Assembly (NCBI RefSeq): GCF_964204865.1
Contig: NC_135252.1
Span: forward strand, 7,812,001-7,876,000
Direction of reading: 5' to 3'
Length of the DNA: 64,000 bases
Origin: Styela clava
Taxonomy: Eukaryota
The notes under the pieces were generated by a model. That model had not been told where the DNA came from, made no database searches, and was given only the letters and a program-made list of their open reading frames with translations. Made by a program: the position numbers and the translations under genes. Shown piece after piece: positions 23,101-55,900 of the stretch (position 1 is its first letter; each line of letters opens with the position of its first letter).

Positions 23101-23145
23101 TTGTAGCATATTTTACAGAAAATGTGCAACTATCGTTAGTGGGAA

Positions 23146-25776
23146 CAATGAGCATATATACAATGAGTGGAAACTTCCAAATATTTGCTCATTAATCCAA
23201 TGTGCCCTGCATTTTTTACGTCGTCCAGATAAATAGTTCGTTGCATATGGAGAAAGCATATCGCTCGCAGCAAAAATCCTTTGCTTCGGCCGCGCCGGGT
23301 GCGAAATTGGCCGTATTGAGGCTTTTAATTTTTCGATTCGTGTTCGGTTTTGGGTTTCGAAGTATGGTACTTTGAAAGCATACTAACTATAAGCATATGC
23401 TTATTGGGAATGCATATCTATTAGGCAGAAAACGTAGCTATAGCACAGAATATGAAGTCAAGTGCGGTTATTTCTAATTATAGCATGGAATTTAGGTACA
23501 TATTTATCCAGGGGAAAGCAATGGCGATAAGAAGGCCTAAATGTATGGCGAACCACGGCTTCTCACAATCATAGTTTATAAGGTGCTTCATACGAATCCC
23601 CAGGCTCCCCTATTTTAAATTACTTTGTCAGTCTGGGATATCTTGACATAAAAAACGAAAACAAAAATTCGAAGAATAGCAGGGAATCGCCATTTCTCTT
23701 CACCTATGTTAAATATGTTATATCAATGAATACAATTCCCCACGTCCCCCTTTACATGGGTCGCATTCCGTTTGATAAACTTTTTTATGCGAAACTTCTT
23801 CCACAAAAAAGCAGCACCGTCGTTATACGGTCGCGCATTATGGTTTCGTCAAAACTATATTATTCTGTGTATTATCACTGCAGCGCAATTAACACCGCCA
23901 GACTTTTTTATCTTTACGACATGTCATCTTTTTTAGTTGGCGCTAATAATGATAAATAAGAATGCGTGATTGTTATTCAGTAACACGCATGTAACCGTCG
24001 TTTAGTTAGGGCGTTCAAAATGAAAGAAGAGTTATAAGCTAATTTAAGGACATTCTCTTTTATTTTAATACAAATACAGGGCGCATTAAAAGCAAAATAG
24101 AATTTATTAACATAAATTTACAACGAGTTACGTAAAATTTACCGACGGCTATCGCCAACAGGCAGAAACGATGAATGTGAGAATTTTTTGTTTTTGCGCC
24201 ATCATATATTTCAATTTCTAATTTTGCGTAAATCGCGTCAACATCGTTTTTGTAAATTTAGAAACGTTGAATCAGATAAGCAAGGCATGTGAATAAGGTA
24301 TTCTATGCAAATTTCCCGAGATATTGTGGAGAAATAATATTTTGACCACGTAGAAATGCTATTATTGCTGATTTATTCACGTGTTAAGTATCAGTGTTTG
24401 AAACCAAAGCTGAGTTACGTGAATACTCAACAATTTGCGGAGTTTTTTAATTATTATTTAATACGAAAGTAATACGGAAACGATAAAAAATTAAAACATA
24501 AAAATGTCAACTATCAGCTTCACAAATATCGCATCCCGGGGTCAGTAAGGATAATATTGTTCGCTCAAAATTGGGGCCGTAACTGTGATACAAATCCTAC
24601 ACAGAAGATAAAAATCAGAATAAAATTAATTTTTGTTGTGAATGCATTCCTTAATAGTTGTCTTTAACATATTCGCCGATATTCGTTAAAATATTCGAAT
24701 AATTTTATATAAGAAAAATACGATTTTGCCCACCAGTAATCACGACGCATGTAAATAATCATTGAATGGCAATAAAAAATCAACTTTATTAGCATTAAAT
24801 TCCAAGTAAAAGTTCCACATTTCATGCATTCGATCGGCGCTACACGCGAGCGTGTTTTTGTATATATTCACCAAAACCGTCAGAGGCGAGTTACACATAA
24901 CTGTGGAATTTCGCTGTGAACGACGCATTGTTTTTAATTTATTACCCGCCTTACGCCGTCATAAATTGAACTTTTGGTGCACTGTTTTAAAACCACCGTA
25001 ATCCCCCCTCCCCCGTTGGAAAAATCCTGGCTGCGCCCCTTGTCCAAGTTCTATATCTCACTATTAATTACAAATATATAATTGCATCCAAATCAACAGT
25101 ATCTATATATATGACTATATGAAGGATCGTTAAAAGTAAATAATATGTAGGCAAAAATCATAATTGATAACAAAATGTACTCTAAATAATATAATGAAAA
25201 ATTTTTTTTTGGGTAAATTCACAAGACATGAAAACGGCAAACTTTAAATTTCAATGGCAAGATATCCCAGAGTAATTTATAGTTAAAATCAGTATTTTTA
25301 ATAAATAAACGAATAAGTCACAAAGTCCTGGCAGCCTGGGAGTTTATATGGAGCACAGAGCTATTTGGAGAGGCCGTGGTTCGCCATATATATTCAGGCT
25401 TTCCTCTCTCCCTGGATAAATATGTAAGTCTCATGTTATATCAATGAATAAATACAGCAATAACCGCACCCCACTTGGCGACTGATTCATATTCTGTTCT
25501 GTAGCTACGTTTTCTGCCTATATGCATTCCCAATATGCATATGCTCCTAGTTAGTATGCTTTCAACGTACCATACTTCGAAACCCAAAACCGAACACGAA
25601 CCGAAAAATTCAAAGCCTCAATACGGCCAATTTCGCACCCGGCGCGGCCGAAGCAAAGTATTTTTGCAGCGAGCGATATGCTTTCTCCATATGCAACGAA
25701 CCATTTAGCTGGACGACGTAAACATTGCAGGGCACAATGGATAAATGAGCAAATATTTGGAAGTTTCCACTCATTG
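23146..25776. mobile_element. Long-TIR (foldback) DNA element with 7-bp TSD, tentatively P-superfamily/Galileo-like
   Basis: 23161-~23650 and ~25255-25776 are inverted copies (outer ~240 bp very similar). Termini CAATGAG...CTCATTG; direct repeat GTGGGAA at 23139-23145 and 25777-25783. No transposase recognised. Confidence 0.75.
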
Positions 25777-25863
25777 GTGGGAACAAGCTGTAATGCTGTA
25801 TGTTCATTTTCACACAAAACTAAAGAATTTATTTAGTTTCACTGTTATAACTTGTGTGTTCTT

Positions 25864-30479: not shown

Positions 30480-30642
30480 ATTCTTTAAATCAGCCTTAAA
30501 TAATGTCATCAAGCTGTTATTGCTTCTTTGAACAGTTACAAAATTGGTCAGTATTTTGAAAAGTAATCGAATATCTCGCGGAGCCCCTGGGTTTCTCTCG
30601 CGGAGCCCTGGGGCTCCGTACGGAGCACTTTGAGAACCTATG
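30480..30642 (-). mobile_element. One end of a Charlie/Buster-type hAT element inserted into the Buster transposase
   Basis: Minus strand CATAGGTTCTCAAAGTGCTCCGTACGGAGCCCCAGGGCTCCGCG begins exactly where transposase homology stops; it is preceded by TTGTAGAG. The other end was not found, so the left coordinate is approximate. Confidence 0.6.
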
Positions 30643-31952
30643 CTCTACAACACAGTTTTTCAAATCTTCTTGTAAGTTTTCCGAATCTTCATTGACACTT
30701 GATAATCTCTCAAACATCGCAAATTTCCTTTCAGATACTTTTCGGCGCCAGTTTTTCAACTTTAGGACAAATGCTCTCATATGATCATTGAGCTGAATGA
30801 TGTTTGCACCCTTCCCTTGTAACTTCAGATTTAAAATGTTCAGTTTTTTTAAAATATCGGCCAAATAGGCAAGATTATTCATCCACAATTGATCATTGAA
30901 GTAGGAAAGAAATTCATTTTTTTCATCGCAAAGAACAACTTCAATTCTTCCTTCATCTCAAAAATGCGGTTTAGAACGTTTCCTCTGGACAACCACCGCA
31001 CAGCTGTATGGAAGAATCCATCTCTTTAAACTGGCGTGAGTTGAGGGTTCCGGATTTGATGTAATTTACGATTTTTACTACCGAATCTAGTACATTTCGC
31101 GGAGGGGTTGGCAAAGTTTTACTTGCAAGCGCGTATCTATGAATGACACAGTGTGTACCTTTGGCTTCAGGAGCAAGTTCTTTGACTTTCTTTTGAAACC
31201 CCGAACGTGGCCCTAGCATGGCAGGAGCTCCGTCAGTACAAACTCCACAAACACGTTTCCATTCTAGATTTGCGGATTCGAAAAATATTTTTAATTTCTC
31301 CATAATATCTGAGCTTGTAGTTGTACTGGCAAGCTCATGACAAAAGAGGAATTCTTCTTTGATGTCCCCTGAATAAATATATCTTGCAAAAACCAACAGT
31401 TGGGCGCATGAACTAACGTCTGTTGATTCATTAACCTGAAAGGAAAACATCGGAGAGGCTTTAATTCCATTTACCACTAAATCTTTGACATCTTGGGACA
31501 TATCTGAGATGCGCCTCTTAATAGTTGTGTTGAAAAAGGAAAGTTGTTTTACTTTTGCCACGCTGTCTTCTCCGAGAATTAATTCCACAGTTTTCAACAA
31601 GCACGGATTAACAGAGTTTCTCAATTGTGTGAGGCTTTTTTTGTTTTGCAATTTGCAGAGAGACTTCATAGGATGCTTGCACTAAGGCCTGTTTTTCTTG
31701 ATAGAAGCTCCCTGAAACATCAAGTCTTTGACGTTCCATAGCGGCTTCATGTCGTCGAAAAAATTCTAAATTCTTCGTGGTGTATTTGGAATGCTTAGTC
31801 TCCAAATGACGTTTCAATTTGGACGGTTTCCTGGATTCAGCACTGAGAACGACATTGCACAATACACACTGCGGCTTCTCAATACCAACGATGACCAAGG
31901 ATGTAAAACTATACTTCAAATAGTCTTCCTCGTATTGTCGCTTCTTCGCCAT
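30643..31952 (-). pseudogene. Frameshifted Buster-type hAT transposase (ZBED5/ZBED8/SCAND3-like)
   Basis: BED finger KPQCVLC...KLKRHLETKH; FSFQVNESTD (first catalytic D replaced by N); CTDGAPAM; HCVIHRYALASK; LAYLADILKKLNILNLKLQG. Split across three frames and truncated at the C-terminus. Confidence 0.92.
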
Positions 31953-32367
31953 GGTAAATAAAATACGGAATTATAAATTACTGCAGGATGTATGATAATC
32001 TTCAGGATAAAACAACATAGACTACAAGCCTACCCCACAGAAAACCCCTTGGTGCAGCATTTCTTCGAAGCCCGCGTGTTTACCGTATCTCGGCGCGCGG
32101 AAATGCAGACAGTTTTTGTGACGTCACAATGAATAACATGCCATAACCATCTCGTGCCGCTTGCTTGATTTTCAAGCAAGAAGCGACATTCTGGGGTCTC
32201 ACCACAGCTAGTGAAAATCTCTCGAAGGCAAACGCGAGTCTATTCCAGACTTCTTTGCGTTCTATTACCAATATGTAACCTAAAGCATTGTAGTATTTTT
32301 TACTGTTTTGCAAGACCTTCGCGACCCCCCTAGAAACCCGTCGCGACCCCCAGGTTGGGAACCACTG
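30643..32367 (-). mobile_element. 3'-truncated Buster hAT transposon
   Basis: Minus-strand 5' TIR CAGTGGTTCCCAACCTGGGGGTCGCGA at 32367; flank TGCTAGAC has the central TA; contains the transposase pseudogene. Confidence 0.85.
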
Positions 32368-34923: not shown

Positions 34924-37900
34924 GTAAGTTTGAAGTATTTTGTATTTTTGCAGCAATTGCATTAACATTTTCTCTAGCATATTCGGAAATGTGAATGCTA
35001 AACTTATCTCATTTCATTGTTTACTTATATTTTGGCATATTGATGTTCAGATAAGGGCTGTGCATTATAAATATTTCCTTTGAGTTCTCGCCCGCAATGT
35101 TAATTTTTTATGTGAAATATTTTCTCAAAACCTAATTAGGACAACTGAACACTATTTTGTGCCATTTTTATTGAATTACCCCGTTTTAGTTCATGCCACC
35201 TAGAATATTATATGAACTGTGATCACCTGTTATCTGTGATGGAGAGCAAAAAATTACTGTTGTCTTCATCTAATTCGAAATTTTATTGAAAATATCCTTA
35301 ATTGCATACTATTTTTGGACCTCAAATTCAATTATCTGTATGAAACTATAATTAATATTGACATGCGCTATACGTTACCAATGGGATTCATATTGGAAAG
35401 GTTGATACCATCGTACACTTTTCAAGCACTGCACACAAAAACGACAATCACCAATTGTGATATTGATCGTGATCAGTGAATGTAGTAGGTTATGGCTTTA
35501 TTTGAGAATAAGTACTATTCAGTTTATTCTATTCAAGAATCAAATATATCACGGGTGAAATATTAAATTTCGATGCCTGTTTTATTGTATAATTTATAAA
35601 CTATCCATTTGTCAAAAATGACCATTAGATCGCACTTAGTATTTATCGACGATTTGTACGCATCTCTGAATAAAAATAATTACCTGTACCTTTGGTTTGA
35701 ATATCTTGAAGAATGAACAAATTTCTTTTTTCCACCTAATTGTTCGTTCTTCATTGCTAATTGCTAGGTATGAGCGAAGAAAGCAACGTATTCATACTAT
35801 AGCATTATATAATATTATAATTATAAACACAATATTAAATGATATGAAACAATTTATCCAGCTCACTGTAATTGTATACAATTTTTATCCCCGCTAATTA
35901 TGTCCACGACCGGCCGTATAATCTGTAATATCCGTCTCAATAACTCTTGTATAGACATGGTGGTACCTTTAATTGATGGAGCAGCATATAATTGACAATT
36001 AATTACATTAATATTTGATTTAGACTCTTGTGACATCGATTAACTGTAAACAACATTTTTGCATGAAAGCATAATTTTTATTGTCATAATATCACCTTTG
36101 GGGCCATATCTTCGAATACAGTTTCCTATAATGACAATATCCTAGTTATTATCAACTTCAGTTTGATTGTATTTTTATTTTTAATGTTTCGAATCATATG
36201 TATAAATGTTTAAAATAGTTTAAAGCCACTTTCAATAGTTTTACTGGTACCTTTTCTCGTCCAGATTTTCTGACAATCTGATTTTGGTTGACACACCAGC
36301 TTATTTTCCTACTTAGAAATCAGTGACACTGATCTAAATGGATTTTAACAAAAAATCACCGGAACATTTATCTTTAAATAATTTTCATCTTATTTTACAG
36401 TATATCAATTGCAGGGAGAAGCACCTCGACCCAAAGCAGTATTGTGTAACAAACCTGAGGTATGAATTGTATATTGCTCTTTTTGAGATAGATAGAAAAA
36501 TCTGTATTATCTGATCTGATTTAACATAATATTGAAGTAATCATAGCATTTTGGGTATTATAGTCTCTATTACACTGTATTTGGAAATGAAGGTCACCCC
36601 TTTCTCATGTTGGTCGGTTACAGTACTTGAACAGTGACAGAAACGCACAGGAAGGACTTATTTTACGGTTGACCGCGATACACTGAGGATAATTTTCAAC
36701 TCATTTTAAACAATGTGGTATTACATCACCTTAAACGTTGTATTCATAAGCCATCTTAATCAAAATTGTTTTTGTCGAGAGTGTATAAACCACGAATGGT
36801 TCGCCTTTCGAAGCTTGTGCTATTTCGATATCGAGACGTCTCGATTGTATTACAACGAACTTTTGTTCGCGGGTTTAAGCAATACTGAATATTACTTGTG
36901 GATATTGAATATTTACATTCAAAGTTTTGGTAGGGAGAAACAGACTACGCTCTTTTGAATCCACGGAGTACCTGAATCTTGAACGAAAACAAATCATTAA
37001 CTCAATACACACAACGGTCGTGGAAGCAACATTTAATAAGATCCCATTCCCTTTTAGCATCTAACGAAATTGTGAAGGGAAATTGTTTTGCCAAACGTGA
37101 TTCACAATGATATTGTGCTCCGTTCTGGATACATACTTGTAAAGTATGAAAGTTTTTTGCGTTAACTTCATTTCAAACTGTCAGTCGACTGAAATCTGAT
37201 GTTTCGTTGGAAGATGTGATGCAATTTTTTCCCCTGGAAAAATTATTTCAAGCATATAATCAAAATCAGAAAGGATTTTGCATGTACTCCCTTCATAAAC
37301 GATCATGTGAAATGGATGGTATCTCTCGATTAACCATTATTTGGTAAAATCTTATGGTGACTATCATATACCTACAGTATTTTCGCTATTCCAACATAAT
37401 GACCAGCAAAACCAAAGCAATCTTTCTTGTTCGTCTTTGCGGGAGAGAAAACGCGGTCGTTCTTGGATAGTCACCCTCAGTAGTTTTATTGACTTAGTAC
37501 TGATTATCTATTTTCCCGGCTCTTGTGGTGTAAATTATGGCAATGAGGTACTTTAACCGATCAAACTTTTAGATAATTGACACGAAAAGACAATTTGAAC
37601 AACTTATTTTGGAATTAGGGACGAAGTCTGACGTATATGTGGTTTGAGGTTACGGCCATGTCGAATATATTGCGAATTAGGATAAGGGATCATTATGCTT
37701 ATGAAATGTGTGTGAGTGTTAAGCAAGAAGCCTTTCATTATCACCTGTTTAATCACAAATATATTCAGGCATGCCTTAGGAATAAATTGCTCTTTGAGAA
37801 TCGTCGTTCGCGAGGCATGTGCCTTTAGTGAAGTTTGAGTGAAGTCATTTTGACTTTGAAGTTACATTTGCCTATAAACAACGTTGAAGTATTCTTTATT

Positions 37901-40900
37901 TTTTTAGTATTATATATATTTTTATCTTTGTTTTTCACCGAGGCCGACCGATCATATGTACAACAATAGATCTAGGTTCTTTGGCGTGTTGGCTGTTATT
38001 TCTAGCATATTGTGGTTCCGTTACGCAGTGTCAAGCTGAATAGCTAGCTACTGATGGAAAGGAATGCAAAATATTAAGTTCCGTGTCACACTATCAAGGT
38101 TTATTGTTCTTCTCTAAAATAAATAAAAATCATATATTCATGGCGCGTGGGATTGATTTTGTGAAAAATATGATGGCACATAGAATTATTCGATGATTCC
38201 TGTAAAAAATATATAATTTCTTTCTCAAAATAAATAAAAGTAAATATCTTGAAATATAAGCCTAATAACAATCGCAGATTAGTTAGATTTTCATTTTCTA
38301 CTTGGGAACCATGGTCGTGCCCGTGCCCCATTCATTCATAGTGCATGAGATTACCTATCATCGAATGTAAATTGTTATTAACAAGTTTTACTCATGGTTT
38401 GGACAAAGGAAAGTAATTGCAAGTACATCGCGCACCTGCTTGTCATGTTGCTCAGCAAAAATTTGTTCTTTGCAATGTGTAATCATTGTAAGATTACATG
38501 CAAATTAAACGTTGTTTTTCACGCCAATAATAATAATTATGATTCAAAACCCATTTTGAGACGCATTGTCATTTTCTATCTTTATCTTTTTTTTCAGACA
38601 AGATTTATGAGATTTTCCATTTCAAACATTCTTAAATATTATAACAGAATTCCTATTTCACACTATACTATATACTGATGTGCATAATGATCTAAATTTG
38701 GCGTTTTATTGCCCCTGGTCATAATGACAACCTGTTACGGTCTTGTGCCTTACATTGCTAGGCAAAGTACATTCCAATCCCCATGCCTAATTTCCGTAAC
38801 ACGATATGTCGTGTGCTTTGTTTTGTGTATCACAAATATCACAGAATGCGTCAAATATAGCGTATAGGAACGCGTGGTATTTACTGTCTATTGATATGAA
38901 AATCTTTGTTTTAATTTTGTTCAGCATGAAATAAATTAGTTCCTTGCATTTCTTGATTACCTTCAGCAGTCGTTCGGAATCAAATCCTTTCAGCTATGTG
39001 ACTTTATGACCCTATATTTTACCTTATAATTTATATTTTGGTTCTTTGTGCTCAGTTGTTTCGATAATTGTTCAATGTGGAATTAAATACCAGACATAGT
39101 TTGACATACGCGCGGAACTTTTTTTTCACGAAATTGTTATATATATAATTACTTAATTTAATAAAATAAATTTTCTAAATATATTTATAGGTGTTTTTGA
39201 ATAAGTTTTCTTAATGTTTATTTACCCTATTGTTGTCGTTTATTAAAGACCTTTGTCTTGTATTTGGAAGACCATCCATTAGTTATGTCTTATAAGTTTC
39301 ATCGTGTTTCTATATATATCAGTTGGTTGCAAACCGATCCTTCATATAATTTCAAGTTATGACGATAATAACAAGTCACGTCAGGTCAAGAATTATAATG
39401 ATGATTTGTTTGCTTACTTCATTTTTGATTGGATTATCCAATACGTAATTTGTCATGAATCAGTATTAGTTTTTGTACTCGTGATCAACGCTAAAACGGA
39501 TAAGTCGTTGGACATATTTCAGTTTTGTTGTTGGTAAATAATATTGGATATATTCTAGGTCAAGCAGACTTTCACTTCAAAATTAAAGTTGAAAATTCTA
39601 GAGGATAACTTTTTCTCTTATACATTGATTATCTTGTCATTATATTGTCATTGATAGTTCAATTTATTGGATTTTGCGTTGGTCCCCAATACCTGACAAA
39701 GATACTCACTTCCAAGCAACGCTTGTATTTTGAACCTAAACCAATATAAAAATAATGTTAATATATCCTGAATAATCTCTGTTAAAAATCATTACCTAAA
39801 AATTGAGAGAAATAATTTGGTTTATTTACCTCTCTGCATTTTACAATATTCTTATTAATCTTTTGGCGCGATGCTGTAAACGTGATTTCTTTCGGAAGCT
39901 TATTGCTGTTGTTTGTTTTTGGTTCGAAGGTGATAAAATTGCACCTGTATTTTCGTGCTTCACTCACACATACTACGTCATATCGATAGGATTGTTCTAT
40001 TTCGTATACATGTGTTATGAAATCAACATCTGTTACTCACTTGTAATGTTAATTAAGAGTGGATCAATTCATTGACGATTGCTCTGGTGCTTTTGTGGGA
40101 TACAGACTTAGTGTCAACGCATATGCCGCATTCATTCCATAACATAATAAATAAAGCACATTGTGTAACACCATTTATATTTTCGAGTGTGATCATGGAA
40201 AAATCATAAAAATCGATCGATGACATTCAAAATAACTACGTGCTAAGCTGGTTGGGATATGCCAAAGTTGGTCATTCGATATATCCATCTTAGTCCGAAT
40301 CTTTGTAATCTATACGAGGATATCACTAAATTTATAGTCTATATTCTTACAGGTGTATATTCAATCTATAGTCTACTACTTCAAAATATCTACTGTCTAA
40401 TTTTATCGCTTTGTAAACAAATCTGAGAAAATACAAGAGAGATTTGAGAGAGTGAAACTAGACCCTCTGATTTACTAATACCCCGTCGAATTGACTTGCT
40501 CTTGCATGTCTTATTTTCACATTGTCCAAATTGAGAGCGATTATGGTACCACAGTTAACTTGGAAGTTGACACATGTTATTGAAATCCCTTGTAAGCAGC
40601 GGAATCGATTCGTGTTGTACATGGAGATGTTATCTCTATTTCACCTTTTTGAATGTTTTGGTAACATCGACTTAACGGACATCATCGTATGATATTAAAG
40701 CGTCTTTTGCAGGTGCAAACGCTTCGTAATTTTTGGCATTAGTCATAAATATACACCACATTAGATTAGTTTTGACATAAAGCCGACCATAATACGAAGT
40801 ATAACCACGTTGGTCCGAAAATTACAAGCTGTATTTGTGCGATATTTGACGCATACGTGCTGCTCCATTTTTGCAAATACGTGTTACTGTACGAGATATT

Positions 40901-43900
40901 GCCCAGTAATCTAGTAGTATGATTTTTATATGCAAGTTTAACTCATACACGTTTTAACTACCGGAGACAACATAAACTTTGAAATACTCGAAAAGTTTGG
41001 ATAAGGGATGGGTATATGGATCTAGATGCTATTTAAATACAACCTCCGTGGATGGATATTGGTCTGTCATATGGGGGAGCAGGTTCAGTCGACCGTGTCC
41101 ATTTTTCTGCACAAGGCTAACATGGCGCATCACATCACATTAGTAGAGTAAATATGAACCGATGTACATCTTCCGATATGCGTGCCTGTCATAACGACGA
41201 GATTTCTATCCAATCCGTGGAAACCAAAAGTTTACCATCCTCTTCTCCTCGCCAAGTTGCTGAGATGAGATTTACTTATAGCCACCCCATACTTGGTAAC
41301 TCGGTTTGTTTGTTGTGCCGTGTTTGTGCAGAAAAATTGATTTTCTACGGTAAAATGGGAGCGTTTTGTTGATAAAGTGGTCGCAAAGTCATAAATAGAA
41401 CTTTCAACATATTACGAAAGCTTATTTCGGCATAGAAATTGATTCTTAGTAGTGCGTTTTTATCACACTTTAGAGGCTGTAGTGTGTTATGCGTTAATCA
41501 AGTTCAATTCGTTTGAGTGTACTGTTCTCAGTGCAGTCTAATCGTACTTTTTGTGTTTTTGCGTTCTTTCCATGAATTATTTATAATTGTTGTAGTTTGA
41601 CGCCCAAATTTACGCTCCATAAATTTGGGTCCACATTAAAAGAGTACTCGTTATCACAATATCTGTCACCCAGCTCTCGCTGTTTATCGTTTTATCGGTG
41701 TAAATAATTGGCGATTAAACACGACTTCGTGTTTAATAACGTTAGCCCTCGACAGGTAATTTCAATCTTCGTTGGAGATTTTATTCATAAGTGGATCTGC
41801 ATATTGACCCACCGTGCTAAGCAAACGAATACATGCCTGGACTTGTTCGCTCGTTAACGCATTGCCCAATGAAAGTAGACGTAACCCTACCTAGACATAA
41901 TGTCGGCAAGGAATTTAAATCCCAGTTTCCTATTGTGTAGGTTGGAATGCGAGACGATATCAAGCTGATTCGTGGTTTATTTCAACTGTGCGAAAACGCG
42001 GATGAATTTTGAAGACACTGATTTTATAATACACATATCTAATGTATATAGTACAGTACTTAGTATTTGGAAATGACATGGAAATCACAAATATGAAAAT
42101 TTGGCGTTAAATTATACTGAGCAATGTGTACGATACATTGGAATAAAGGTGTTACAAAAGATTAATCTGATCATCATTTCAATTCCCGTGTGAAACACAG
42201 GTATCATGTTCTGGTATTGTTAACGATGATTACCAGTAAAGATTACGTCACATTTGCACGACGATTGTTACATAATTTTGTAACGTTCAGTCAACCATCA
42301 TTTCACAGTATTCAATGTAAGCCGCGTTTTCAGTCATATTTAAGCAAATGCGCGCTTGATATATACTTTTAGTTTAATTAAGTATTTAATTTAAATAATT
42401 TCCAGCAGTGTATCAATATGCTGACTTATTTATCATTGGTAGATTTGTATTGTTCCACAGTTATCTTTAAGATACCGATAGTCGATCCATCGTAGGGAAA
42501 CGCTCCCCATTCTCATATCGTTTGGTGTGTATTCTCCTGAATCATTTCAAGTTAAAATGTGGTATACAATTAATAAACTATTGAAAAACTCCGGCCTAAC
42601 TTTTCCCAATTCGGGCATGACGAGATCCGTTTAGCTGCGTCCGGTCTGTCGTCATGCTTCATATATAGATGCTCTTTGCTGGCTAAACTGAAAATAAGTT
42701 CAAAATGTAATTGAAGATAAGTTGAAAAGTAATATTACGACCTTTCCGGCGTTTTGTCTCCATAGTCGTGTAATTTGCCAGATACTCTTCCAAAGTATGC
42801 CGCTTTACCTTTTAGAGTTGTAAATGTGCTACATTCTTGAATCGTAGCAATAACGGTTCCCCGAGCCGTATCGCTCTCTCCTTTCAACGCTGTCCGCTCG
42901 CAGAAGGTCTGATTTTCGGTTTTATATTTATTGGGATTTGTTGCTGTTGTGGAGCGATAGTTGAATGTCGATTTGCGGATTCTGCTATCTGTATAACAGC
43001 TAATTTTACAAATATGCTCTCAACTTATGAATTAACCGTCAACCACGATTACCTCTTCCACAAACGTGTCCTTCATTTCCAAAAGCGGTTCAAATAATTA
43101 TATACACACCGTCGTTGATGGTGGTGATTTACATTCTCTTTCAAAAACTCCCACGGTTTGAAAAAGGTATTCGCCGTACGGTATAGGTATAAACATTCAA
43201 GTCGAAACTTATTTTTAGTCTTCGAGGGAAGAAAAGTATCGAATTCGACTACCTGAAAGTTGCCGGTGAAAATAGAACCATAGCATAGAATCCACATTTT
43301 CGATAACGTGTGCATTGGTCCTCTTTAGCAAAGCCCTATGTCTGGATAAACTTGGACAATAATGACTATTTGTAGAATAAAATATCCCTCAACAGATGTA
43401 TACAAATAAGGGTCGTTGATAATTTGCAACGTGTTCTATTAGTTCACTGACTCACGTAAAGTACAACATATGTAAACATGGGGTTGGTAAACATTATAAT
43501 TTGTAATTCTGTGAGACGTGCACTAATTTACTGTTAATAATAAAAGTCAATAATCGTGGAATCGGGAGCTCCGTACGTTAAATAAGCAACCCAGCATACC
43601 CAGAAAAGACAAGAAATAAACCACTCGAAGCGAAATGTAATTGCCATCGATATTCCTGTCCAGATAAAGCCAGACAATAAAATTAAACATTCCGTCCATA
43701 TGTCGGTCTCAAATTATATTCCCTTGGGTGCACTTCTAGCCGCTCGTATCTGATCGAAAATTCTAACTCGGTTATATGTTTACTCACTCCTTTGGCCTTA
43801 GAGTGGATTGGAAAAAAGTAAATTGCTGCATTACTAAAGCAGTCCAACAGTAGGTTAGGCATAGTTCTACCAAAACATCTAATACTGTGGTCTCCGTCAT

Positions 43901-46900
43901 TTGCCACGTCCCAAGCGTTTACGACAGTTTTGATTGTTGCTGACAATTCATATTCATAATAATAATTCAGGATATTCAGCCCAGCACGACACATTATTTA
44001 TACATTAATAAAGAGTTCAACGGTCTGATTCAATGCAACAACAATTCAATACGCAAAACAACTTGAAATGTACTGAATTTTGAATTCATTAAAACAGCTT
44101 TGACAGTTCTAGATATATTTTACTCTCAACCACATGCGATACCAACTGACCAACCAACATCACCAGCATTATTTGTGATATTTCTTCATTATTTATATTT
44201 TGACTTGTACTAGAATTCCGGCTCGTTTCCAAACTTCATTTGTTAACATTGCGGTATATTTTTATTATTGGTCACACCTGATGATTCATTCAGTAATCGA
44301 CTTGACATAAGCCGGTAAATATTTTCAGCTTTGTCATAAACCTACCCATCACGTGGAAAAGCGTCAAATCCTAATTCTTTCGCGAGTTCTCAAGCCGAAT
44401 CCAACAAAAGCGTACTCGTGTGCGGTATCCTTTAGTCATTGTTGTGCGGTATTAACAGTTCGAACATGGTTCTCAAGTTCTTTTGTGTTTCGCTGCACTT
44501 CAATTCCTTAAGATAAGCTATTCGGTCGATGGTGTTATGTGACTTTTGTTTGTAATAGGACTTGGGGGTGCTTGGAGTAATTTGTCTAAATGTCAAATTA
44601 AGTATCAAAGCGCGGATAAATGTCGATACCAAAGTACAGTAAAGTTTATGAAAAATGCCACGACCAAGAATATTATTCACCTGTGAAGATCGCAAAACAT
44701 GTCATTAAACATATAAGGTTTGACGTAGTAAAAGATAAAGGTAACCATCAACCAGCGTGGTATCTCACACCTGGCTATGAAGTTGATTAGTAATAAATTG
44801 CCAAGTTGTATTTGGGTGGTCAAATCAACGTTTAAAATAGACAATCATAAGACCCACTATCAACGGGCTTGGGCTAACAGTGCTCATGAATGAAAATTGA
44901 GCTATTGTAAAACTCGTCATTTATCAAACCAAAAGGTGTTAATTTGGTTTTTGGATTTCTGCATTAAATGGAAACTTTCTATTTTTTTTTCAGGCAAAGA
45001 TGGGACGTCCACCTTACTTCGGAGACGAATGTCATGGACTCATTTCCAGAGAAGATGGGGATATTTTGTGTCAGGAAGAGGGCAACTTCCTTATCCGCGA
45101 ATCTCAAAACGAGCGAGGACGGTATACTTTAGTTTTAAGGTAATGTTTTTAAATATTTTTTCTCAACTATTGTAGCAGTAGTTGGCTTTCATGAATAAAG
45201 TTGTCTTTTGTCCATTAGCTAGTTGATTTTAAGTATAATTGACGTCTCAATGCGATAATGACGTCCAATGATATACCGGTAGTTGAAATTTCCTGTAGCA
45301 TTAACCAGTTTTACATCCAACTCATAAAACCAATGAAATATGCTGTATTCAGTTCGTAAAAATATTTGTCTGAATTTTGTTGGAACCAAATTCTAAGCGT
45401 TGACTCTACCCTAACCAAACATTTAGCAGCACGGCGTGGAACAGTTAGAAATTTTTACTAGTCAAAACCATTCCCAATTTCATTATTTAACCATTATGCC
45501 AACATGAGACAAATGATGAAAATTGCCTGTTTATTTACGTTATTATCATTTCTATTTTAAAATCTTCATGAGTTGTATTATGTTACGTTGTCGGATGTTA
45601 TGGTTGTCAGTTTAGGAAGATAAAGCACTTAAAGTTCTTTCGCGTGCGTGCTGATTAATTGTTTTTGAACTAGTTATCTAACAAGAGGGGATGCGGTACT
45701 AGATTTTGGCTTAATCTTTTGTGTGCCGACTAATTGAAAGGAATGCAAATAAAAGCTTGCTTTAAGGGCCATTTGCTAAGTTTGTCAAATAATGGACACC
45801 TGACGCGCCCTTCTAGACTCGAAAATTGAAATACATTTATGGTACTTGTCCGCAAATGCAGACAAGTACTACGGAGATATTTTTTTAGCAGTTTTTCACA
45901 TGTTATAACAACGTAATTATCAGAGAAGAAAATCGTTAACCGAATTTGAAATACTCGTAATTTACTGTGTATTTACTTCGTCTCACATCTGTTGCGCCGT
46001 CATTTATTGGTAAAATCGTAAATTGGACGGTATTTCAAGCGATGTCGCAATATTAAAAGTATTATGGGCGCAATGTTTACATTTTCCGTATCGCTTTATT
46101 CTTTTATCGCACAAAATTTTACCTCAGGTTTTATGGCAGACAGCAAATATTTGAAGAACGGTCAAATTGAATATCACATTATCAGCTCCATCATATATGC
46201 CGTCTTTAGGCTTATCTGAAACGATAATATAATCCACGAAAAGTGAACAGACGAATTATTATATGGTTTTTCAATGCAGATACATATATAAGTAAATTAG
46301 TTTTTGAAATAATTTAGCCGCAAATTTATCTGCCGTCTGAAAGACATGATTATCGACCATAAGTTTTAACATGACTTTTTTATGCGGGAAGATTCATCGC
46401 AACGAGCGAAACGATCCATGCGGTTCGAATTCACTTATTTTTTAAGTATAAGACTTAAAAAAACAGATTACGACACTCTATGATGATGTTGTTATACGCA
46501 ATGTGGTTTTTCTTCAATTGATTTACTTGTGCACTTGAATGCGTACGGATCTTATAGCTCTGAATAATGATGCTGTCATCCAACATCTATGTCGTGGTTG
46601 CACTGTTTTCAACTGGAACAGGTTCACGAAATACAACGAAATTGCCTCATGCTTAAATTATTATTGGATTACGACATTACAATACGAAAACAATTACTTC
46701 TTTAGTCAAAAATGCGGAAGAAGATGATTATTCATCAAGTTCCCGCCGTGCTTTCATGCATACTTCCTCATTCCTATTTCATTTTCTTTATATTTGAAGA
46801 TTTCAGTATTTGATTTTGTTGTTTTTCAACTTACTTACTTTGACCACTATCAGATTTCATTACAAAGTACACCATATCCTGATGATCTAATAAAAGCAAT

Positions 46901-49900
46901 CACGTTTTAGGGTAAACTGTGGTTTGATTAGTAAACCCTTCAGGTTATTCTGCTGAAAAATTTACTGAACTAATTCCGGTATGACGAATACTCAACCGCT
47001 TCACACATTCCGCAATGAATCATTATAGCAATACCGATTCACTTCAAATTCCTAGATGCTTGAGATTATCACAAATAAGTCTTGTTTAAGGACAAACGGT
47101 TGACGACCACTGATGTGGGTGTCATGGTTGCCACGGAACATTGTTGCAGGGGAGTTGCGCTGGTATGCATATGCAGTATATACTATATACATGTGAATGT
47201 ATTGGAATTAGTAACAAAACGTATTTTTTTTTTTTAAACTTGGATCTGGAATCGTCAATTACTAATGCGAAATATCATTTTGGTGGTCTACTGGTCGGCA
47301 TCAGTCAAATTTCTATAGTCCCCTACAGGCGAACTATTTATATTCCTTTTCTTATGATAAAATTAACCAATTACACACAAACCACATCCTCAGGTGTGGG
47401 AAAGTACGATTAAACTTTTAAACCCTTTGCTGTTTATTCGGGCAAAGAAATATGATATCGTAGTCGAGTTACCATATTTTCCCCTAAACTGCATATTGCG
47501 GCTAGGAAATGAGATTATTGTGCAAAGGTTGGGTAAAATACATGAAGCCAACAATATATATTTTGTAAGCTATTGTGTAATCTATTGCACATACCACAGA
47601 CGATCGACTCGTAAGTACCGGAGCTGAAGTCCGATATTCGCTCCTAAATAGGGATTATATGATTTTATCTGTTTTTCACGTAATTGCTAATTTTCTAATA
47701 TAAACATAGTTCATTCAAAGTTGTATTAGTTTACAGACAACTTGACCCGCGTCTGACAGTATAATTTCAATACACATGCTGAGATCGTGATTGTGGGTAT
47801 ATTTTCGAAATTATAGAAGGATTGGGTCACTTATTATAATCCAATCGAGCCGAAACGGAACTACTTATACAATCCGCGTTATAATTGCTGTTTTGAGTAT
47901 GGGATGAATATATCTACCACGTGTTTTATCTCTGATCCATGCTGTGCTATATATAAATATTTGAATTTATCTGTAATGAAGTTTATGTACCGTCGTCGTT
48001 TTCAGTGTGATATTATGATTTCATTGTCAAGATAAAAATCAAGTATAAGCAAATGCGATATATAGCGCGTCGATGACCGCTTGCAGTTGTTCTATCAATA
48101 TCCTTTCCACGTTTAGTTAAGGAATCCGGAAATTGATTTATTTGCTTGATAAAAGATGAAAAAATGAATGTGTATATTTTTTTATCCGCCTGTTTTAATA
48201 AGTAACAATTCATTTCTTACCCACTCAAGATATAGGATCGATTATCTTGGGCTAAGTTTTCTTCGTATTGCCCTGTATGCCAATAGTTGCAGAGTATTAT
48301 CGCTATTCTGGTACTTAAAAACGTCGCGATGTGTGACCATTTCATTTTTGCCCTATGTCAAAGTAATCCATCTAGAAATGCCCTCCGCGTACCTTTCGAG
48401 GTATAAGCAGACGTTTGGGTTTTGAATTTCAGTCATTGTGAGAATAGCGTATCTGTCCTAATCTCTTACGAATCGAGTTCTAAATATATCCAGAGAGCTT
48501 ATGAAATAGCTAAGCCTTGAAAATTGCAAGACTACGATTTCTATCCGATGCGACGATTTCTCCGAATGCCCCATTTACAGTGTGTATATTCAAATCACCG
48601 TGGTCTTGTGGAGTTGCGACCGATTTGTCGATGTAGAAGCACAGCGCTTCGTATTGCGTATTCCTTTACATTTGATATGAATTATGAAGTCGCCAATAAC
48701 ATTTCCAGCGAAAATGTTTTATTTATTTAGATTGCTTTTGCTGTCAGCTAAATTGAATATTTTAAAATTGAACTTTTAAGTCGTGGTTGATTTATGGTTA
48801 TTGATAAATTGTGTATTCGTCGTTGGGGGCAATAACCCCAATAAAGGAAAGCGTGCCAGAAATTTGATTTACGGATGACAGACGGTGCCTAAATAAACTA
48901 AATTAACAAAAGGCGTCGATGGCCTTCGAGTACGTGACCCATTGTCTCCGATGATGAACGACCATTTAGTTTGGCCGCCTATATCTGCACCGGTAACATG
49001 TGTATCCAATTGTAAATCCGCTCTGCAAATACTTGAGCCACCTGCCAACTATTTCAAGACTTGACTTGGGTGGCTCTTCAACGTTTCCGCTTTTGATGAA
49101 ACCGATTTCCCCGTTAATTGGCGGCAACACAAAAATCTATTTTGTAAGAAGGTTGACATTCATTTCTACTTCAGTGAGCGACAGTATTTTGTGAGGAAAT
49201 TAAGGGGATACTTGATGTAACGCCTGGATAAATTCATGGAATGGAATTGTCGTCTGTGGAATTTAAGTTATCTACAAATTTTTCATATGCTTTCACAGAA
49301 GTAATGAATTTATACAAGATTGACAATATGCGAACAAAATTGGTCATAACGTACTCAATTCTCCAGGGGTTACTCAGGTTTTCAGAATCGCTTGTGTCGA
49401 TACTCGATATCCATGTCAATAATACGTTTATTCGTGTGTTGGTGTACAGTTACAGTTGCACCTTGGCTTGTGTTTGGACGCAACCCCAAGTTCAATAGTA
49501 TTTTGTCGTGTGCATGTCACATTTTGCATTGTTTTCCGTCATGCTGTGCTGTTTACCACACTAGTAGTAAGTAACATAAGTCTTATAAATAGGAATGGTT
49601 TAAATTCAAGTGACATGACCCCCTTCCCCGTGGTTAACCGCGAATGCTTGGTCGGCTGTAGTTTTTGCACTTCGTTTCCTGTTGACATAATGCCAACACA
49701 TCTCGTCCACGAAACGAAATACAAATTTTTGTACGTGGTGCATTGCAAAACTAAATGAGGGCTGTATTTGAATTAGGGTTATCACAAACGACGCTAAGTG
49801 ATTGCAAAGAGCATATTTATCCCCATTACCATAATACCCTTTTATATTTTCAATTATATTCAGCAGCTTGAATTATGCCTTTAGTCAAGGTTTGACCGAG

Positions 49901-52900
49901 CTATCAGATTCAGCTGCACTGTAAATTTACTGTTGGGTAGGTGGGCTGGTTACAGGTGACGTAGATCGCCGAAATAACATTGGAATGACTAAAACTTTGT
50001 CCCGTCGCCTTACTAATAACACAAAAAATACTAATTTTCAGTCGTTAATCGATAAACGTTATTAGGGTTCCTCCACGTCATAATTTAAAAATACGTCGAA
50101 TTTCCACTTTTACTGTCACACGGCAATTTCCGACTTAAATATATCTTTATGACCACCCTCCATTATCATCCACTTGGAAATCAATCTTTTTAACAATCTC
50201 TCATCCCGATACTTTGTTTGCTTTAGTAGATCTTTTAAAATCGATGACTAAATGGACGAATACATCGACCAGTCGTCCGATTATTTAATCAATTCCACTA
50301 TTGCGGGCCGATCTTGGCCGATGTTAAGTTTTATGTCTTCTATTCAAAGGTTGAGAAAAGGTCGACGTATTTCTCAAGAATTTCACGCTTTTATTATCCC
50401 AAATGCAGTGTTTTGTTATTCGTGGCAGGCCTATTGTGGATTATCACAGTGCGAAAAGTTTTCTTTATTTTACCGTGGCACAATTTTAATGCCTTGTTTT
50501 CAGGGAAGCACAGAAGCCAACCGACGATGGTCATGGTGAATTATTTAGCACAATCAAATCTTATGAGAAAGTTTTATATAAAATTAAATAGAAAACATAA
50601 TGTGTGCTATTGAAATTTGCCAAACTGAATTTAAACATAATATTTGTTTCATAAGAGCGATGCTCCCAAATTTGTTGTATGATTATGAATACGCGAAATA
50701 GAGGCGCCCAATATTTCTCCATATTTTTCATAACATATAATAAATGTGAAGTCTAATTGAATGTTCTACTTATACTTCTAAGGTAGTATTTCTAACACTG
50801 AAATTGTCCGATTTGCATTCAGTCCAATTGGCAATTTGTGTTTCATGGTGTATTATAAATTTAATTTCTGTATTATATTTCATCCTACAAGAGCGGTTAG
50901 CGTCTAAGCTTTCGTTACATTTATGATTATGTTTATAAAACACTGGATGCTGTGAAGTCGGGCATTCGATACTTCTCATAAGTTCTTGTGTCAACATCCT
51001 GTCTGTCTGGTAAAAATATACAAACCGTCGAAGTCTTCGGTATAGCTATTTATCAAACGCGGGCGTGTTCAGATGTTATAATTAAACCGTACGCACACTT
51101 GCTGAATTACAGGTTCGTTTCCGCTACATTTTGTCTTTCTTGATTATTAGTGATCCTAGTACTTCGATTGTACGTTTCCTATTCTATAATCTGTTTATCT
51201 TCTCAGATAGTTGTGTGAATTGCCTAAACGAGTTTTTCCATATAAGTTAAGATAACAGATATAATGAAAAATCCAAATTAACTTACAATAATCGGACACT
51301 AAGTAAGTGTACATATGGATCGTTTTGGTATTATGTTGTTGTTGATCATGTTATTAGTATTTTCTTCTTCTTGTTGTTGTCATTAACTACTGGCCAGATG
51401 AAATTTTCTATGGTTAAACATTGTATTTTCGCTAGGTGGCTATTACTTATTCATTTCAAAAATTTCGGTTGCCTTTACCGGGTTCGTTTTTGTATGCAAT
51501 GACGTCATCAAATTAAAAAATTGCGCTTCTTATGGCGGTTCCTCTTTCGCGTAAGTTGTTGTTGGTGGTTAGGTACCGGTAGACTACTGTACCCTATTGA
51601 ATATTTATTTCGTGTCCATATATTTGCGCACCGCTCTCGTGTTTTATTGTTTTAGCATTTCAGATAATTAATTTGAACCTGACAAAATGAGTACATTAGA
51701 TGACAGAAATGCGCCATCACTAATTACTTCGGAAAGTCAAGTGCATTTCAAAATTCAAACTATCGATAACGTAAACGTAATGAGGCGATACTTCAAATAG
51801 CGTCAAATAATCGTCCGGAGCGTGACTTGGAAATTGTTGAAACGCCAACATCTGACACACAAAAAAACTTAGTGTACCATAAACAAAGCGCCACACGCTT
51901 TATGACACTACCTGTTCTAGATAGTATCTGGATTGCAGTATGTCACAGATAAATTTAGAATTTGCTTAACTATATATTGTTGAATTTATAATACCCCACT
52001 ACAAGAACTTTAGGTATCATACAGAAATTATGCTGGATTATGTCCTAGATTACAAAAAATATATGTAATTGCTTCGAAAAACGTATCATTTTGGTTCAAA
52101 TGGCAACATATTTGAGCGGATTTTTGTGGAAAATTTGACCATAAAGAGTTTGACCTTTTATACATAATGCTCTTTTGTTGCTTGTACACCATCAAATTAT
52201 ACGTTCCCCAAATTCTAGATCAATGCCCAGGATATTTTGGATAAGCCTGTGTCGGCCACACACATTATATATATATATTACTATCTGTTAATAATATAAC
52301 AGCAGATAGCAGCATTTAAAATATTTCGAAATACCTATGCTACTCTGCTTCATAGTTTTTGCATATAACGTTAAAAAATTTGCACCCGTTATTTTGAATT
52401 TTCAAGTAAGTTTAATTACAATTCAGCCAACTAAAATTAGCAAAAGATGAATTACAACTACAAGAGCGTATTTTATTGCTCATGTTTTGGTAGGTAACAT
52501 TTGATTAGTAATAAAATGCCATTGAGTTTTCTGCAACTTTATTACAACATTTGTTGTGTTCAGCTCGGCCTTTGAAGGATTATAGACTTGTTGTTACACC
52601 GTGCGGCTGCGAGTGCAGTATTTTTACAGCTCGTCGCTGTTTTGGGGTTGTTTACTTAACATGCGGTAGTTTTAGCGACCATGCAACAACACCAGGTCTG
52701 TTCATTTGATTTCATGCGTGCAGGTTGTAGTTATAGCTCATATATTACATCCCGATGCATCATGAAAGGTATTGAATATGCAATTTCATTTGATGTCATA
52801 AAACTCAAAATGAAGTTGTGTTTCGCCTGTTTGGCGCAGGCGAGTGTGACGTGACAGACGTGCTTGGTAATTTCAATTTCAAGATAGCTGAAGCTGAATT

Positions 52901-55900
52901 CATACATTGTATTACAAGTATAGTTCTATTTTAAAGCATACTATATAGGTACATGTCACAAGGGCGTGCTTGTACTAATAAAAATCACTATTCTCTTTGA
53001 GATTACAGGTTCTGCATGTTCACTGTGCATAGTCTTAATTTGACTGTTACCTATTATACTACAAGGACATTTATTTAACTGTAGATTCAGATATTTGAAC
53101 ATTCGAATTATTTGCACTTTCATTAAAATAAAGCCCATATACAGACTGTGTTTTGATTCGCTTTAGCTGCTTATTTACTCATTTTTATCGGATCCCAAAA
53201 TGCTCCATTGCGAACTTCGCCCAAATGAAACCCCAAAGAAGGTGAGCTTGCTGGAGTTGTTTTTATTCGATCAAAACGCTCTGCAATGATAGACGTTCCC
53301 CAGCATTGAAAGACAAATGCTTTGTTTATTTGGACGTCGCCGATTGTGGAATAGACCTTGATATATTTAACCACAGTCGCCACAGATTCTTTTGTTCTAT
53401 AGAATACGGTATGTTTCGGGTCGCATGGCACGACGAAAGCCATGTCAAGTGTAAAACTTCAAAGAGAGATTAAATATAACCGTATCGGCTGCCGGTCACG
53501 CCTTCCGATCCTTAATTTTCAACAACAACAAGAGCAATGGTCAAGTGTACTGTCGAAACACAACAAATCCATACTTATATTTATTATAAGTAATTTGGTT
53601 AATCGTACGCAAATCATGCGGTGTCGAGAAGCGTTATTTCCTTCGGCACATTGTAGTGATCAAAATACAAGTAGATTCGATTTTCATTTTTTACAGTAAA
53701 ATATGATAATAACTTCGTTGGTATGCTACTACAGGAAGCGAACTTCTAGATCCGATTTTTAATAGTCAGTAACCCATAACGAAATAACGTGCAACCGGCA
53801 CTTTCCTCGATGAAGGGTTTAATGTGGCATATTAGTCTGCAACGGATGACCTATTTCGGCGAATTCTCGATGAGGCGGGCAATTTGCGATTTCATTTTCA
53901 TTCAATTTTGGTGGTCTATAAATTTTACGCTATTATAATAATATAAGCTACGAACCATAATGGATATTGAAGAAACAGCTCCAATTTTTTTAATAGAATG
54001 CGTGTGACTCCTGGGAATATCTCGCCAAAACACGCGAATGCTTTCTAATGTATCAAAAAGAAAATTCCCATTCTCAATGTCGCTGCTTATCCTGTCAAAG
54101 TTTGTCAGAATTCAAACTTTGTTGCGCATTGAATAATGTCCAATGTGACTTGTCAGCGACTGTCTATGTATGGGCCATAAAATATGGTCACGGTCAACTA
54201 TAATATACACATATTGACTTTATAAATGTCTGTTATCGAAAACGGCCTCTGATAAATGTATATCTTTTATCTTGCTATCAACTTACCAGGTTACGTCGCC
54301 TGGGATCGTCTATTGAGAGTGCGTCAAGAACGACTCGTGGGCTCATTCTTGACACCGTTGTACACGAATTTACGTTAACTTCGTTTTCCCCGGGGTCCGT
54401 CTATCCCATTTTAGTATAGTCAACGATGATAAAAAAGAAAGATCTCGCTCATCTTATTTTAAACTCCTATTATAAGCATATGATTCTATTGGAGACTCAA
54501 ATGACAAATTATTATACAATATTTCAGAAGCAAATTTGAGCCACTAAAATTATTCCATGTTGAAATATTAAAATACGTCTAGGCTGCCCGATCCAGAGTT
54601 CCGGTTTGGGGTTTATCCGTGATATTCCGACAAGGTTCTTTCTGTATTTCCATATCCACCAAACCACTCACATAATATCTTTACTGTCCTTATGTATATC
54701 GCGATGTTCTTGGTAAGGGAAAGAGGGATGCCAGTGTTGTGACAGCCAACGTGTACCACGACCAAGTTTCGATATAAATCACCCCATTTATGACGAACAG
54801 ATACGTCAAGATTTTTTAATCTGGGATTTTCGTATCACGACGCATATTTGATTCATGATAATTTTGGCTATTTTCGAAAATAATGACATTCATATTTTTT
54901 ACCGGAGGCGTAATTCTTTTAACATAATTTATAAATTATATATTGGGTGGGCGTTAACACTGACATACCGTTACCGTTTACGTTTATAATCTAGTTTATC
55001 AGCGTCATTTCGCACTAAAACATAGTGTGAACTTATTGAAATCTATTTTACGTAATGGAATTTTTCGCCGTCTTCATCGATTGAAAAATTTGAACAGGGT
55101 GGACAATTAAAAGGATATAAAAACCGAAATAACTCATTGGCATACCTTTTATAGTTGAAGCTAACCATAGGTTAGCACCTTTATACACCTTTATATCAAA
55201 CTGAGACTATATCAGAAATCTTCTTTTTTTGAACATTGGTCATGTGGATCTCACTACCTTAAAGCTGTTTTCCTGATCTTATTGACTTGAACTCAAGTCT
55301 CGCGTCAACCGGTATTTACCGGATCGTAATACACCACCATAATCGGTTCTAAACATTTTCAGTTTGTCGTTTTCGCTTAGAAATGGGTCTATTTAATTCT
55401 GAGTAAGTGCGTGTGACCTTGCTTTGAGAAAATTATCTTAAAAAATAAGAAATCTTTTAAATCCCATTTATAGATTGGACATAATTGTCCTATTTTTAGA
55501 AATATTTATGTTATTTTTAAATGGCTGGTAGACCTTTCTTCGCTTTTGTGTAACTGCCTCTTATTTACATCCTGACAGTGGCTTTCGGTCAAGCATGATA
55601 TTAATATGACGAGGAAAAAAAGAACTGACCTCGAATTAATTTAGTAATAGATTACTGTCAATGGGCATCGGCGGGTTTTCACACTCACCCGTGAATCCTT
55701 TAGGACTTCACGGTTCGCCCGAAGTCACGCACTATTTATTTAGATTACCAAAGTACCGTACGATAGCTCACACAGACATAACATCGAATCTTATTATGTC
55801 ATTTCCAGGATTCTAGGGGCTGTGAAGAACTTCAAGCTATATTGGGAAGACGGACAGCATTTTGTTGGTGACAAAAGATTTGATAAGTGAGTCAGATTTT

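Follow-up and report, generated by a model that had tools for sequence, protein, structure and literature searches.

Weak antisense RNAs that arise within long introns and are spliced form a known class, and PMC4115187 describes enhancers that yield spliced lncRNAs (elncRNAs and intragenic enhancer transcripts). LncRNAs have already been catalogued in Ciona savignyi, as cited in PMC13071498. Two other arrangements come close to the locus studied here: nested intronic protein-coding genes, found on the opposite strand of long host introns, and unprocessed (duplicated or unitary) pseudogenes, in which exon-like pieces carry stops and frame breaks. Unprocessed pseudogene loci can be transcribed.

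Here, the window is a 64,000 nt stretch of the Styela clava genome (NC_135252.1, 7,812,001 to 7,876,000), in which a preliminary description had proposed a hidden antisense gene of twelve segments, apparently decaying and nested in a chimaerin-like gene. We consider it probable that this chain was picked by eye and behaves like shuffled sequence, and that the locus instead produces a short, likely non-coding, spliced minus-strand transcript at about 43370-42107. With the lncRNAs of PMC4115187 this RNA shares a length above 200 nt, splicing, an intronic position, probably the strand opposite to the host, alternative and incomplete splicing and a poor reading frame; it differs in that it overlaps no host exon. 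The proposed chain resembles nested coding genes in its opposite strand and long host introns, but has no open frame, coding signal, family, homologue or spliced support. Like unprocessed pseudogenes it consists of exon-like pieces with stops and frame breaks; unlike them, it has no recognisable parent gene or orthologue in its own genome or in public collections, and its signal loss and stop count fit no single age. A literature search returned nothing on the present locus.

The host protein, which we take to be a chimaerin-like SH2-C1-RhoGAP (XP_039266547, labelled Styela clava; 99% identity over the 206-aa query), contains the Pfam domains PF00017, PF00130 and PF00620. Its gene maps as 21 exons, and 7 of 1175 aa are mismatched. 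Between the SH2 and C1 domains the Styela gene has a long stretch of low complexity, which vertebrate chimaerins, judging by their size, lack. Exon 3 is spliced on both sides in all five RNA runs. The parts of the host that hold the proposed chain, and the upstream part of the chain, are as follows.

36460..44993, plus strand: host intron 2, 8534 nt, GC 0.35; exon 2 joins exon 3 in RNA contigs.
44994..45139, plus strand: host exon 3, start of SH2, mapped from P0002 and by Pfam SH2.
45140..55808, plus strand: host intron 3, 10669 nt, GC 0.36, with a GT..AG joint in 4 of 4 runs.
43788..54820, minus strand: the ten segments furthest upstream (54820-54672 to 43939-43788), each open from AG to GT.

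The letters agreed with much of what had been described. The twelve segments sit in introns 2 and 3 and straddle exon 3, all twelve have AG before and GT after, their translations match the reported peptides, and the TGA at 46124-46126 and the TAA at 44432-44434 are both present. That the segments chain in phase was true of seven of the eleven junctions (48352 to 43133) and untrue of the other four (54672/54400, 54287/53396, 53179/48352 and 43133/42988). The in-phase run also requires that 48352-48221 be read in the frame carrying a third stop (48242-48244), so that three stops lie inside the run. The continuous frame of a nested coding gene is accordingly broken by these three stops and at four of eleven junctions. 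An internal peptide similarity, taken as a hint of repeated beta-rich domains, scored 30 and was equalled or exceeded by the best pair in 144 of 300 shuffles.

Segments and host exons were compared with a splice and coding model self-trained on 54 exons of the same genome. All 19 held-out host exons had positive coding scores, as did 28 of 30 fibrinogen-domain exons, compared with 3 of 12 segments. The segment median was -0.05 per codon against +0.08 for host exons (p 0.0002) and fell inside the interquartile range (-0.18 to -0.03) of open frames taken at random from introns. Segment acceptors were weak (median -1.9 against +2.5, p 0.004), with a T share before the AG of 0.39 against 0.54 in the comparison set, while segment and host donors did not differ (medians 1.8 and 2.3, p 0.15). 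The segments have neither the coding-type sequence nor the genome-typical acceptors of a nested gene.

Chains of this kind need a null that includes splice and coding scores, because at 36% GC seven short open segments will by default line up in compatible phase. The shuffled-intron test named in the preliminary description was run, and its long chain proved no better than chance: a phase-compatible chain of seven exons with no more than two stops, measuring at least about 650-700 nt, arose in 60 of 60 block shuffles. The splice-score sum of the described exons was matched in 29 of these 60 and their splice-plus-coding sum in 49, and the best seven-exon splice sum (17.4) was exceeded in five. 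Over the whole region the best chain scored 14.6 against 8.4 in shuffles, a borderline result reached by 25 of 300. No excess was found in the upstream 11.6 kb (43400-55000), where the best chain of 8.7 was equalled in 111 of 300 shuffles; a modest excess (12 of 300 as good) was confined to 42100-43400, where the RNA joints fall. Selection by eye likely produced the long minus-strand chain, which scores like shuffled intron; this bears out the description's own warning that such segments may agree in phase by chance, and the ten upstream segments are read as chance intron sequence.

Searches of the own genome, and of public protein collections with the stretches given below, revealed no homologue or paralogue. 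No intact paralogue of the kind sought by a tBLASTn-type search came up in the own genome, where this DNA is single-copy, nor within 100 kb on either side. Weak own-genome matches (L002, L004, L005, L039, L041-L044) involved one segment each, and L041-L043 look like copies of one repeat. Stretches 53180-53395 and 44435-44584 had no match at E 10 among longer proteins, a weak test in which the host control found only P0002. In Pfam, nothing came near the cut-off for ten open stretches or for the three minus frames of 42100-48400 (X at stops), and the best matches among PDB sequences had E 0.37 and 0.54. When 43686-43997 was compared by HMMER with 1.84 billion proteins, the one match was a bacterial SprB-repeat protein, rejected as a sum of weak repeats whose best single piece had E 1.1. 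One segment also matched fibrinogen exon L004 off frame, which had suggested a relic; a fibrinogen-domain relic was rejected after a shuffle test (15 of 300) and since PF00147 and a genome-copy profile gave at best E 0.57 (protein) and 3.8 (DNA), compared with 5e-17 for the control locus L004.

A multi-exon gene left out of the annotation and its repeated beta-rich domains, as first proposed, are not supported, given weak acceptors, a missing coding signal, chance-level chains and no homologue in these searches. The suggestion of an antisense lncRNA held up within some 1.3 kb at the 3′ end alone (43370-42107), and there with an exon structure different from the one drawn. The evidence comes from contigs of five of eight putative RNA runs (X1, X2, X3, X5 and X6; X4, X11 and X12 were left out), whose RNA nature is a guess supported by host splice joints; the contigs are unstranded and show presence only. 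The features of the transcript are listed here.

43448..43454, no strand given: TGAGTCA site, 75-100 nt upstream of the probable 5′ ends, noticed post hoc.
43253..43373, minus strand: probable exon 1 of the antisense transcript, its 5′ end taken from where contigs stop; donor score +2.1.
42688..43252, minus strand: intron A, 565 nt, GT..AG, seen as a CT..AC-ended joint in X2, X3 and X5.
42688..42808, minus strand: intron B, 121 nt, sharing the acceptor of intron A, with its donor after 42809.
42107..42687, minus strand: last exon; strong, T-rich acceptor (score +4.1), 3′ end estimated from contigs.

Contigs over 42107-43373 occur in four of the five runs, which also contain spliced host mRNA, and unspliced cover of the region was seen too. 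Contigs end near the start at 43348 (X1), 43367 (X3) and 43373 (X5), the last exon is represented by 42109-42689 (X1), 42107-42687 (X5) and 42500-42687 (X3), and the nearest AATAAA is at 41981. Joint A (43253 to 42687) is present in three of five runs from two studies, with a shorter side of 24-30 letters and six ambiguous letters. Joint B (42809 to 42687) was found in X1 alone of the five, with a side of 28 letters, depth 3.13 and donor score +1.4. Both joints, at depths of 2.9-8.9, have shorter sides of 24-30 letters, below the 31-letter bridging mark. The strand opposite to the host is read from the CT..AC intron ends at these two joints in unstranded data, which points to an antisense RNA, and 43370-42107 likely gives rise to a short RNA of about 0.7-1.3 kb, exceeding 200 nt within a host intron as intronic antisense lncRNAs do. 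The donor described after 42809 is used in one of five runs; the described acceptor at 43252 acts as a donor instead, its supposed exon being spliced out in three of five. Intron A takes out both 43252-43133 and 42988-42809. None of the eleven segment junctions is among the joints listed in the five runs, whose contigs show presence only; 51200-55000 entered into one of the two contig comparisons, in which four joints went unlisted, one of them the joint of X1. Most upstream segments have no contig cover, to which we give no weight. Low-depth unspliced contigs that cross some segment sites (X6 44579-44816, X2 48158-48406) may stem from host pre-mRNA or from DNA.

In the three RNA forms the sole ORF of at least 15 aa with a positive coding score has 16 aa, and the longest ORFs (48 and 80 aa) score -4.9 and -17.5. 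Judged on sequence, by these scores and by the lack of a Pfam match, the RNA probably has no protein-coding capacity, and it carries no convincing reading frame. Folding of the last exon gave z -1.44, with 8 of 100 shuffles as good, and the single match of an Rfam scan was far below the cut-off.

The TGAGTCA, presumably an AP-1-type site, occurs nowhere else in host introns 2 and 3, which together span 19.3 kb; a 664 kb sample contained 61 such sites. A weak start site adjoining it, about 1.6 kb upstream of exon 3 in chimaerin intron 2, would likely be an intronic enhancer or cryptic promoter, a link drawn from this one post hoc motif. Polymerase would run from there against the host direction, and the spliceosome would join either donor (after 43253 or 42809) to the single strong acceptor at 42687. 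We infer that the RNA is a by-product without a regulatory role, as we do its start, end and enhancer origin. As it stands the locus is of little importance: the antisense RNA is likely ordinary, and the yield is one small transcript, probably absent from the annotation, plus a candidate regulatory site, both within a chimaerin intron of an ascidian.

An old nested coding gene, decayed by at least 20% and surviving as some splice sites and a 3′ end in the antisense RNA, is unlikely; it would mean that the described exon limits and frames are in part mistaken. It would account for the good segment donors, the one proposed donor in use, the borderline whole-region score and the single-copy DNA, and 42988-42742, 42687 onward and 42535 onward share a genomic frame in which 196 codons contain 4 stops. 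After 22% simulated decay, 11 of 20 real-gene copies scored at or below 14.6, and the self-trained model has little power for old relics. Such decay of a real gene, however, predicts about 15 stops per 450 codons against three in 503, and nine equally stop-poor windows exist in the six frames of the host introns; the negative homologue and paralogue searches and the upstream 11.6 kb likewise speak against it.

It is improbable that there is no antisense transcript and that the joints arose as deletion alleles in the genome, or in host pre-mRNA as artefacts of assembly or template switching. The short joint sides and six-letter microhomology at joint A would suit this, as would real indel alleles nearby (a 42-nt gap in X5, a 12-nt insert in X3 and an 8-nt insert in X7) and an unexplained go-back joint 43373/43118 in X5. 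Against it, one right end is met by two different left ends, in both cases at well-scoring sites and with the canonical ends of a minus-strand intron; two studies share joint A, and four of five runs cover 42107-43370. DNA run X7, possibly the assembly source, spans 41800-51200 as one piece with neither joint.

We hold equally little expectation for an ascidian-specific nested gene that decayed beyond recognition but kept its last exons as an AP-1-driven antisense RNA, one that may encode a 48-residue peptide and tunes the transcription of chimaerin or the use of its exon 3; if true, a dead nested gene would have turned regulator of its host. That the RNA encodes a small protein, from the 48-codon frame or a longer one via unseen joints in a young or tissue-restricted gene, is very improbable. 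In favour of this frame, made by joint A (43281-43253 plus 42687-42570), are its passage across the joint seen most often, a start context with a purine at -3 and G at +4, and a stop codon within the last exon. Against it, its ATG is the fourth from the probable 5′ end, its coding score is the negative one given above, it belongs to no family or paralogue set, and joint B introduces a stop into the long open frame immediately past the splice.

A young pseudogene or null allele of a twelve-exon gene, suggested by seven in-phase junctions, just three stops and the absence of the ten X7 variants from the segments (P 0.27 by chance), is hardly credible and was rejected as largely refuted by decay simulation, in which a real gene with about three stops should score about 50 against the observed 14.6, and host exons at 2.5 stops per 450 codons (substitutions only) averaged 50, with a minimum of 29.8 and 0 of 20 at or below 14.6, a residual exon signal out of proportion to the disablements. 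The stops at 46124-46126 and 44432-44434, for which polymorphism had been suggested, and the third stop are the same in X7, one individual and possibly the source of the assembly; both segment SNPs in RNA contigs change the residue, and 43252-43133 is removed by splicing.

Two minor observations concern sequence beside these features. One low-depth contig lies at 43517-43743, and a repeat, inferred to be MITE-like, lies outside the proposed chain.

51305..51650, no strand given: dispersed short repeat in host intron 3, with at least 41 other genome matches.

The chimaerin-like host gene of the twelve minus-strand open segments (54820-54672 to 42988-42809) that the preliminary description had read as an apparently decaying nested antisense gene was mapped as 21 exons at 34872-74519, with 7 mismatches in 1175 aa, in the 377 Mb genome of Styela clava. 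A 206-aa piece of this plus-strand gene was 99% identical to XP_039266547 (labelled Styela clava), a protein that harbours SH2, C1 and RhoGAP domains and was the only match in that search. About 750 low-complexity residues separate SH2 from C1 (56995-62678 and beyond, exons 6-15). Introns 2 and 3 are the longest two of the gene (GC 0.35-0.36). At DNA level, the only exceptions to single copy in 42000-55800 are a 60-nt match at 48080-48139 and, near 51305-51650, a dispersed repeat.

Features of the host gene and of the window
36460-44993, plus strand: host intron 2, containing part of the proposed antisense structure
44994-45139, plus strand: host exon 3, with the proposed structure on both sides
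45140-55808, plus strand: host intron 3, containing part of the proposed structure
51305-51650: dispersed short repeat with at least 41 further matches in the genome, at 68-81% identity
27144-28941, plus strand: broken ORFs resembling a retrotransposon gag-pol relic
30517-31970 and 20177-20690, minus strand: broken ORFs resembling hAT-type transposase pieces

The segments were accurately described as sequence. All twelve are preceded by AG and followed by GT, the translations agreed, the stops TGA 46124-46126 and TAA 44432-44434 are present, and the segments flank exon 3 in introns 2 and 3. The claimed chaining in phase held for 7 of the 11 junctions (48352 to 43133) but not for the other four, and the in-phase run carries three stops (48242-48244, 46124-46126 and 44432-44434). 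A single contig of the DNA run X7 over 41800-51200 differed by 9 substitutions and 1 insertion, none inside the segments; the stops and frames in this range are therefore not assembly errors as far as X7 shows, although X7 may be the source of the window DNA itself.

A small antisense RNA is likely real, and ordinary. Contigs from five runs were examined, and their RNA status is supported by spliced host mRNA in all five. Two joints show CT..AC ends, which read as GT..AG on the minus strand. One links 43253 to 42687 and occurs in three runs (X2, X3 and X5, belonging to two studies); the other links 42809 to 42687 and occurs in one (X1). The model scored the common acceptor 42687 at +4.1 and the donors at +2.1 (43253) and +1.4 (42809); the shorter sides of the joints were 24-30 letters, slightly below the 31-letter mark used for bridging. 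The transcript ends are weakly hinted at by where contigs stop: at 43348-43373 in 3 runs and, on the opposite side, at 42107-42109 in 2 runs from two studies. The suggested antisense lncRNA thus stands in part, with two minus-strand-type joints, but these differ from those proposed and lie only at the 43373-42107 end. Of the proposed sites, donor 42809 is used, but 43252, proposed as an acceptor, functions as a donor; in X1, the contig using 42809 passes unspliced through the proposed acceptor 42988. None of the 11 proposed junctions was among the joints listed for the five runs, whose contigs show presence only. One X5 contig (record 18, depth 13.2) runs through 43253-43373 and then back to 43118-43147; its junction 43373/43118 has neither canonical splice ends nor a clear repeat. 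Candidate explanations are an allele with a 256-nt tandem duplication, a circular molecule or an artefact.

The three RNA forms are about 0.7, 1.1 and 1.3 kb long. Their longest ORFs were of 48 aa (score -4.9) and 80 aa (-17.5), and only one ORF, of 16 aa, scored positively. The RNA had no match in Rfam, and folding gave nothing unusual. The only AP-1-type site in introns 2 and 3, at 43448, precedes the inferred start by 75-100 nt; at 61 such sites per 664 kb this proximity is an approximately 1-2% coincidence, noticed post hoc among four motifs. The weak, spliced antisense RNA probably originates from an intronic enhancer or cryptic promoter; transcripts of this class are described in PMC4115187.

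The proposed gene of 12 exons probably does not exist. All 60 shuffles of 43051-47750 contained a phase-compatible 7-exon chain of comparable length and no more than 2 stops, so that the proposed 7-exon chain does not exceed chance; its splice sum was equalled or passed in 29 of these shuffles and its splice plus coding sum in 49. The internal peptide similarity, taken as a hint of repeated beta-rich domains, was equalled in 144 of 300 shuffles. A chain search tolerant of stops and frame breaks scored 14.6 for 42101-55000 (25 of 300 shuffles as high), 8.7 for 43401-55000 (111 of 300) and 6.9 for 42101-43400 (12 of 300).

Splice-site matrices, together with a coding model of three-base periodicity, were trained on 664 kb of the genome minus the host (54 exons), and the host gene, left out of the final training rounds, served as held-out control. 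Coding scores were positive in all 19 held-out internal host exons and in 28 of 30 fibrinogen-domain exons, against 3 of the 12 segments. The median per codon was -0.05 in the segments versus +0.08 in the host (p 0.0002); random open intron frames gave -0.11 (quartiles -0.18 and -0.03). Segment acceptors were weak (median -1.9 versus +2.5, p 0.004; T share 0.39 versus 0.54). The donors were on par with host donors (1.8 versus 2.3, p 0.15), which favours the proposed gene, yet is also the expected outcome of picking by eye. The best-scoring candidate exon on the minus strand under the model was the 60-nt match, 80% like a tandem array elsewhere in the genome (L008-L012 on sequence C1).

A very old relic with different exon limits is possible; when decay of host DNA was simulated by substitutions only, 11 of 20 copies at 22% change (about 15 stops) came down to 14.6. 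A young decaying gene is contradicted by the same score, since host copies brought by simulated substitution to 2.5 stops per 450 codons averaged 50, with none of the 20 down to 14.6, and intact host stretches scored 68 and 54. The few stops together with the poor signals fit selection of open frames and not decay.

No relative was found in the Styela clava genome (queries: six segments plus a read-through stretch), within 100 kb on either side, among public proteins with three segments as queries, or in Pfam and PDB; this absence is weak evidence because the query pieces were short and the only genome covered was that of Styela clava. The only HMMER match was a repeat-sum artefact, and a fibrinogen-domain lead failed on testing. 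The fibrinogen C-terminal domain has at least 167 matches genome-wide (L086-L115 among them), many of them tandem-clustered. The literature search returned nothing on this locus.

The ends of the 51305-51650 repeat, which we infer to be MITE-like, are present in many RNA contigs. The translations of 23113-23382 (minus strand) and 25555-25836 (plus strand) are near-identical, and the pair, about 2.2 kb apart, is possibly the inverted ends of a single element. Relative to the window, X5 has a 42-nt gap (42308-42349), X7 an 8-nt insert (44887) and X3 a 12-nt insert (47523).
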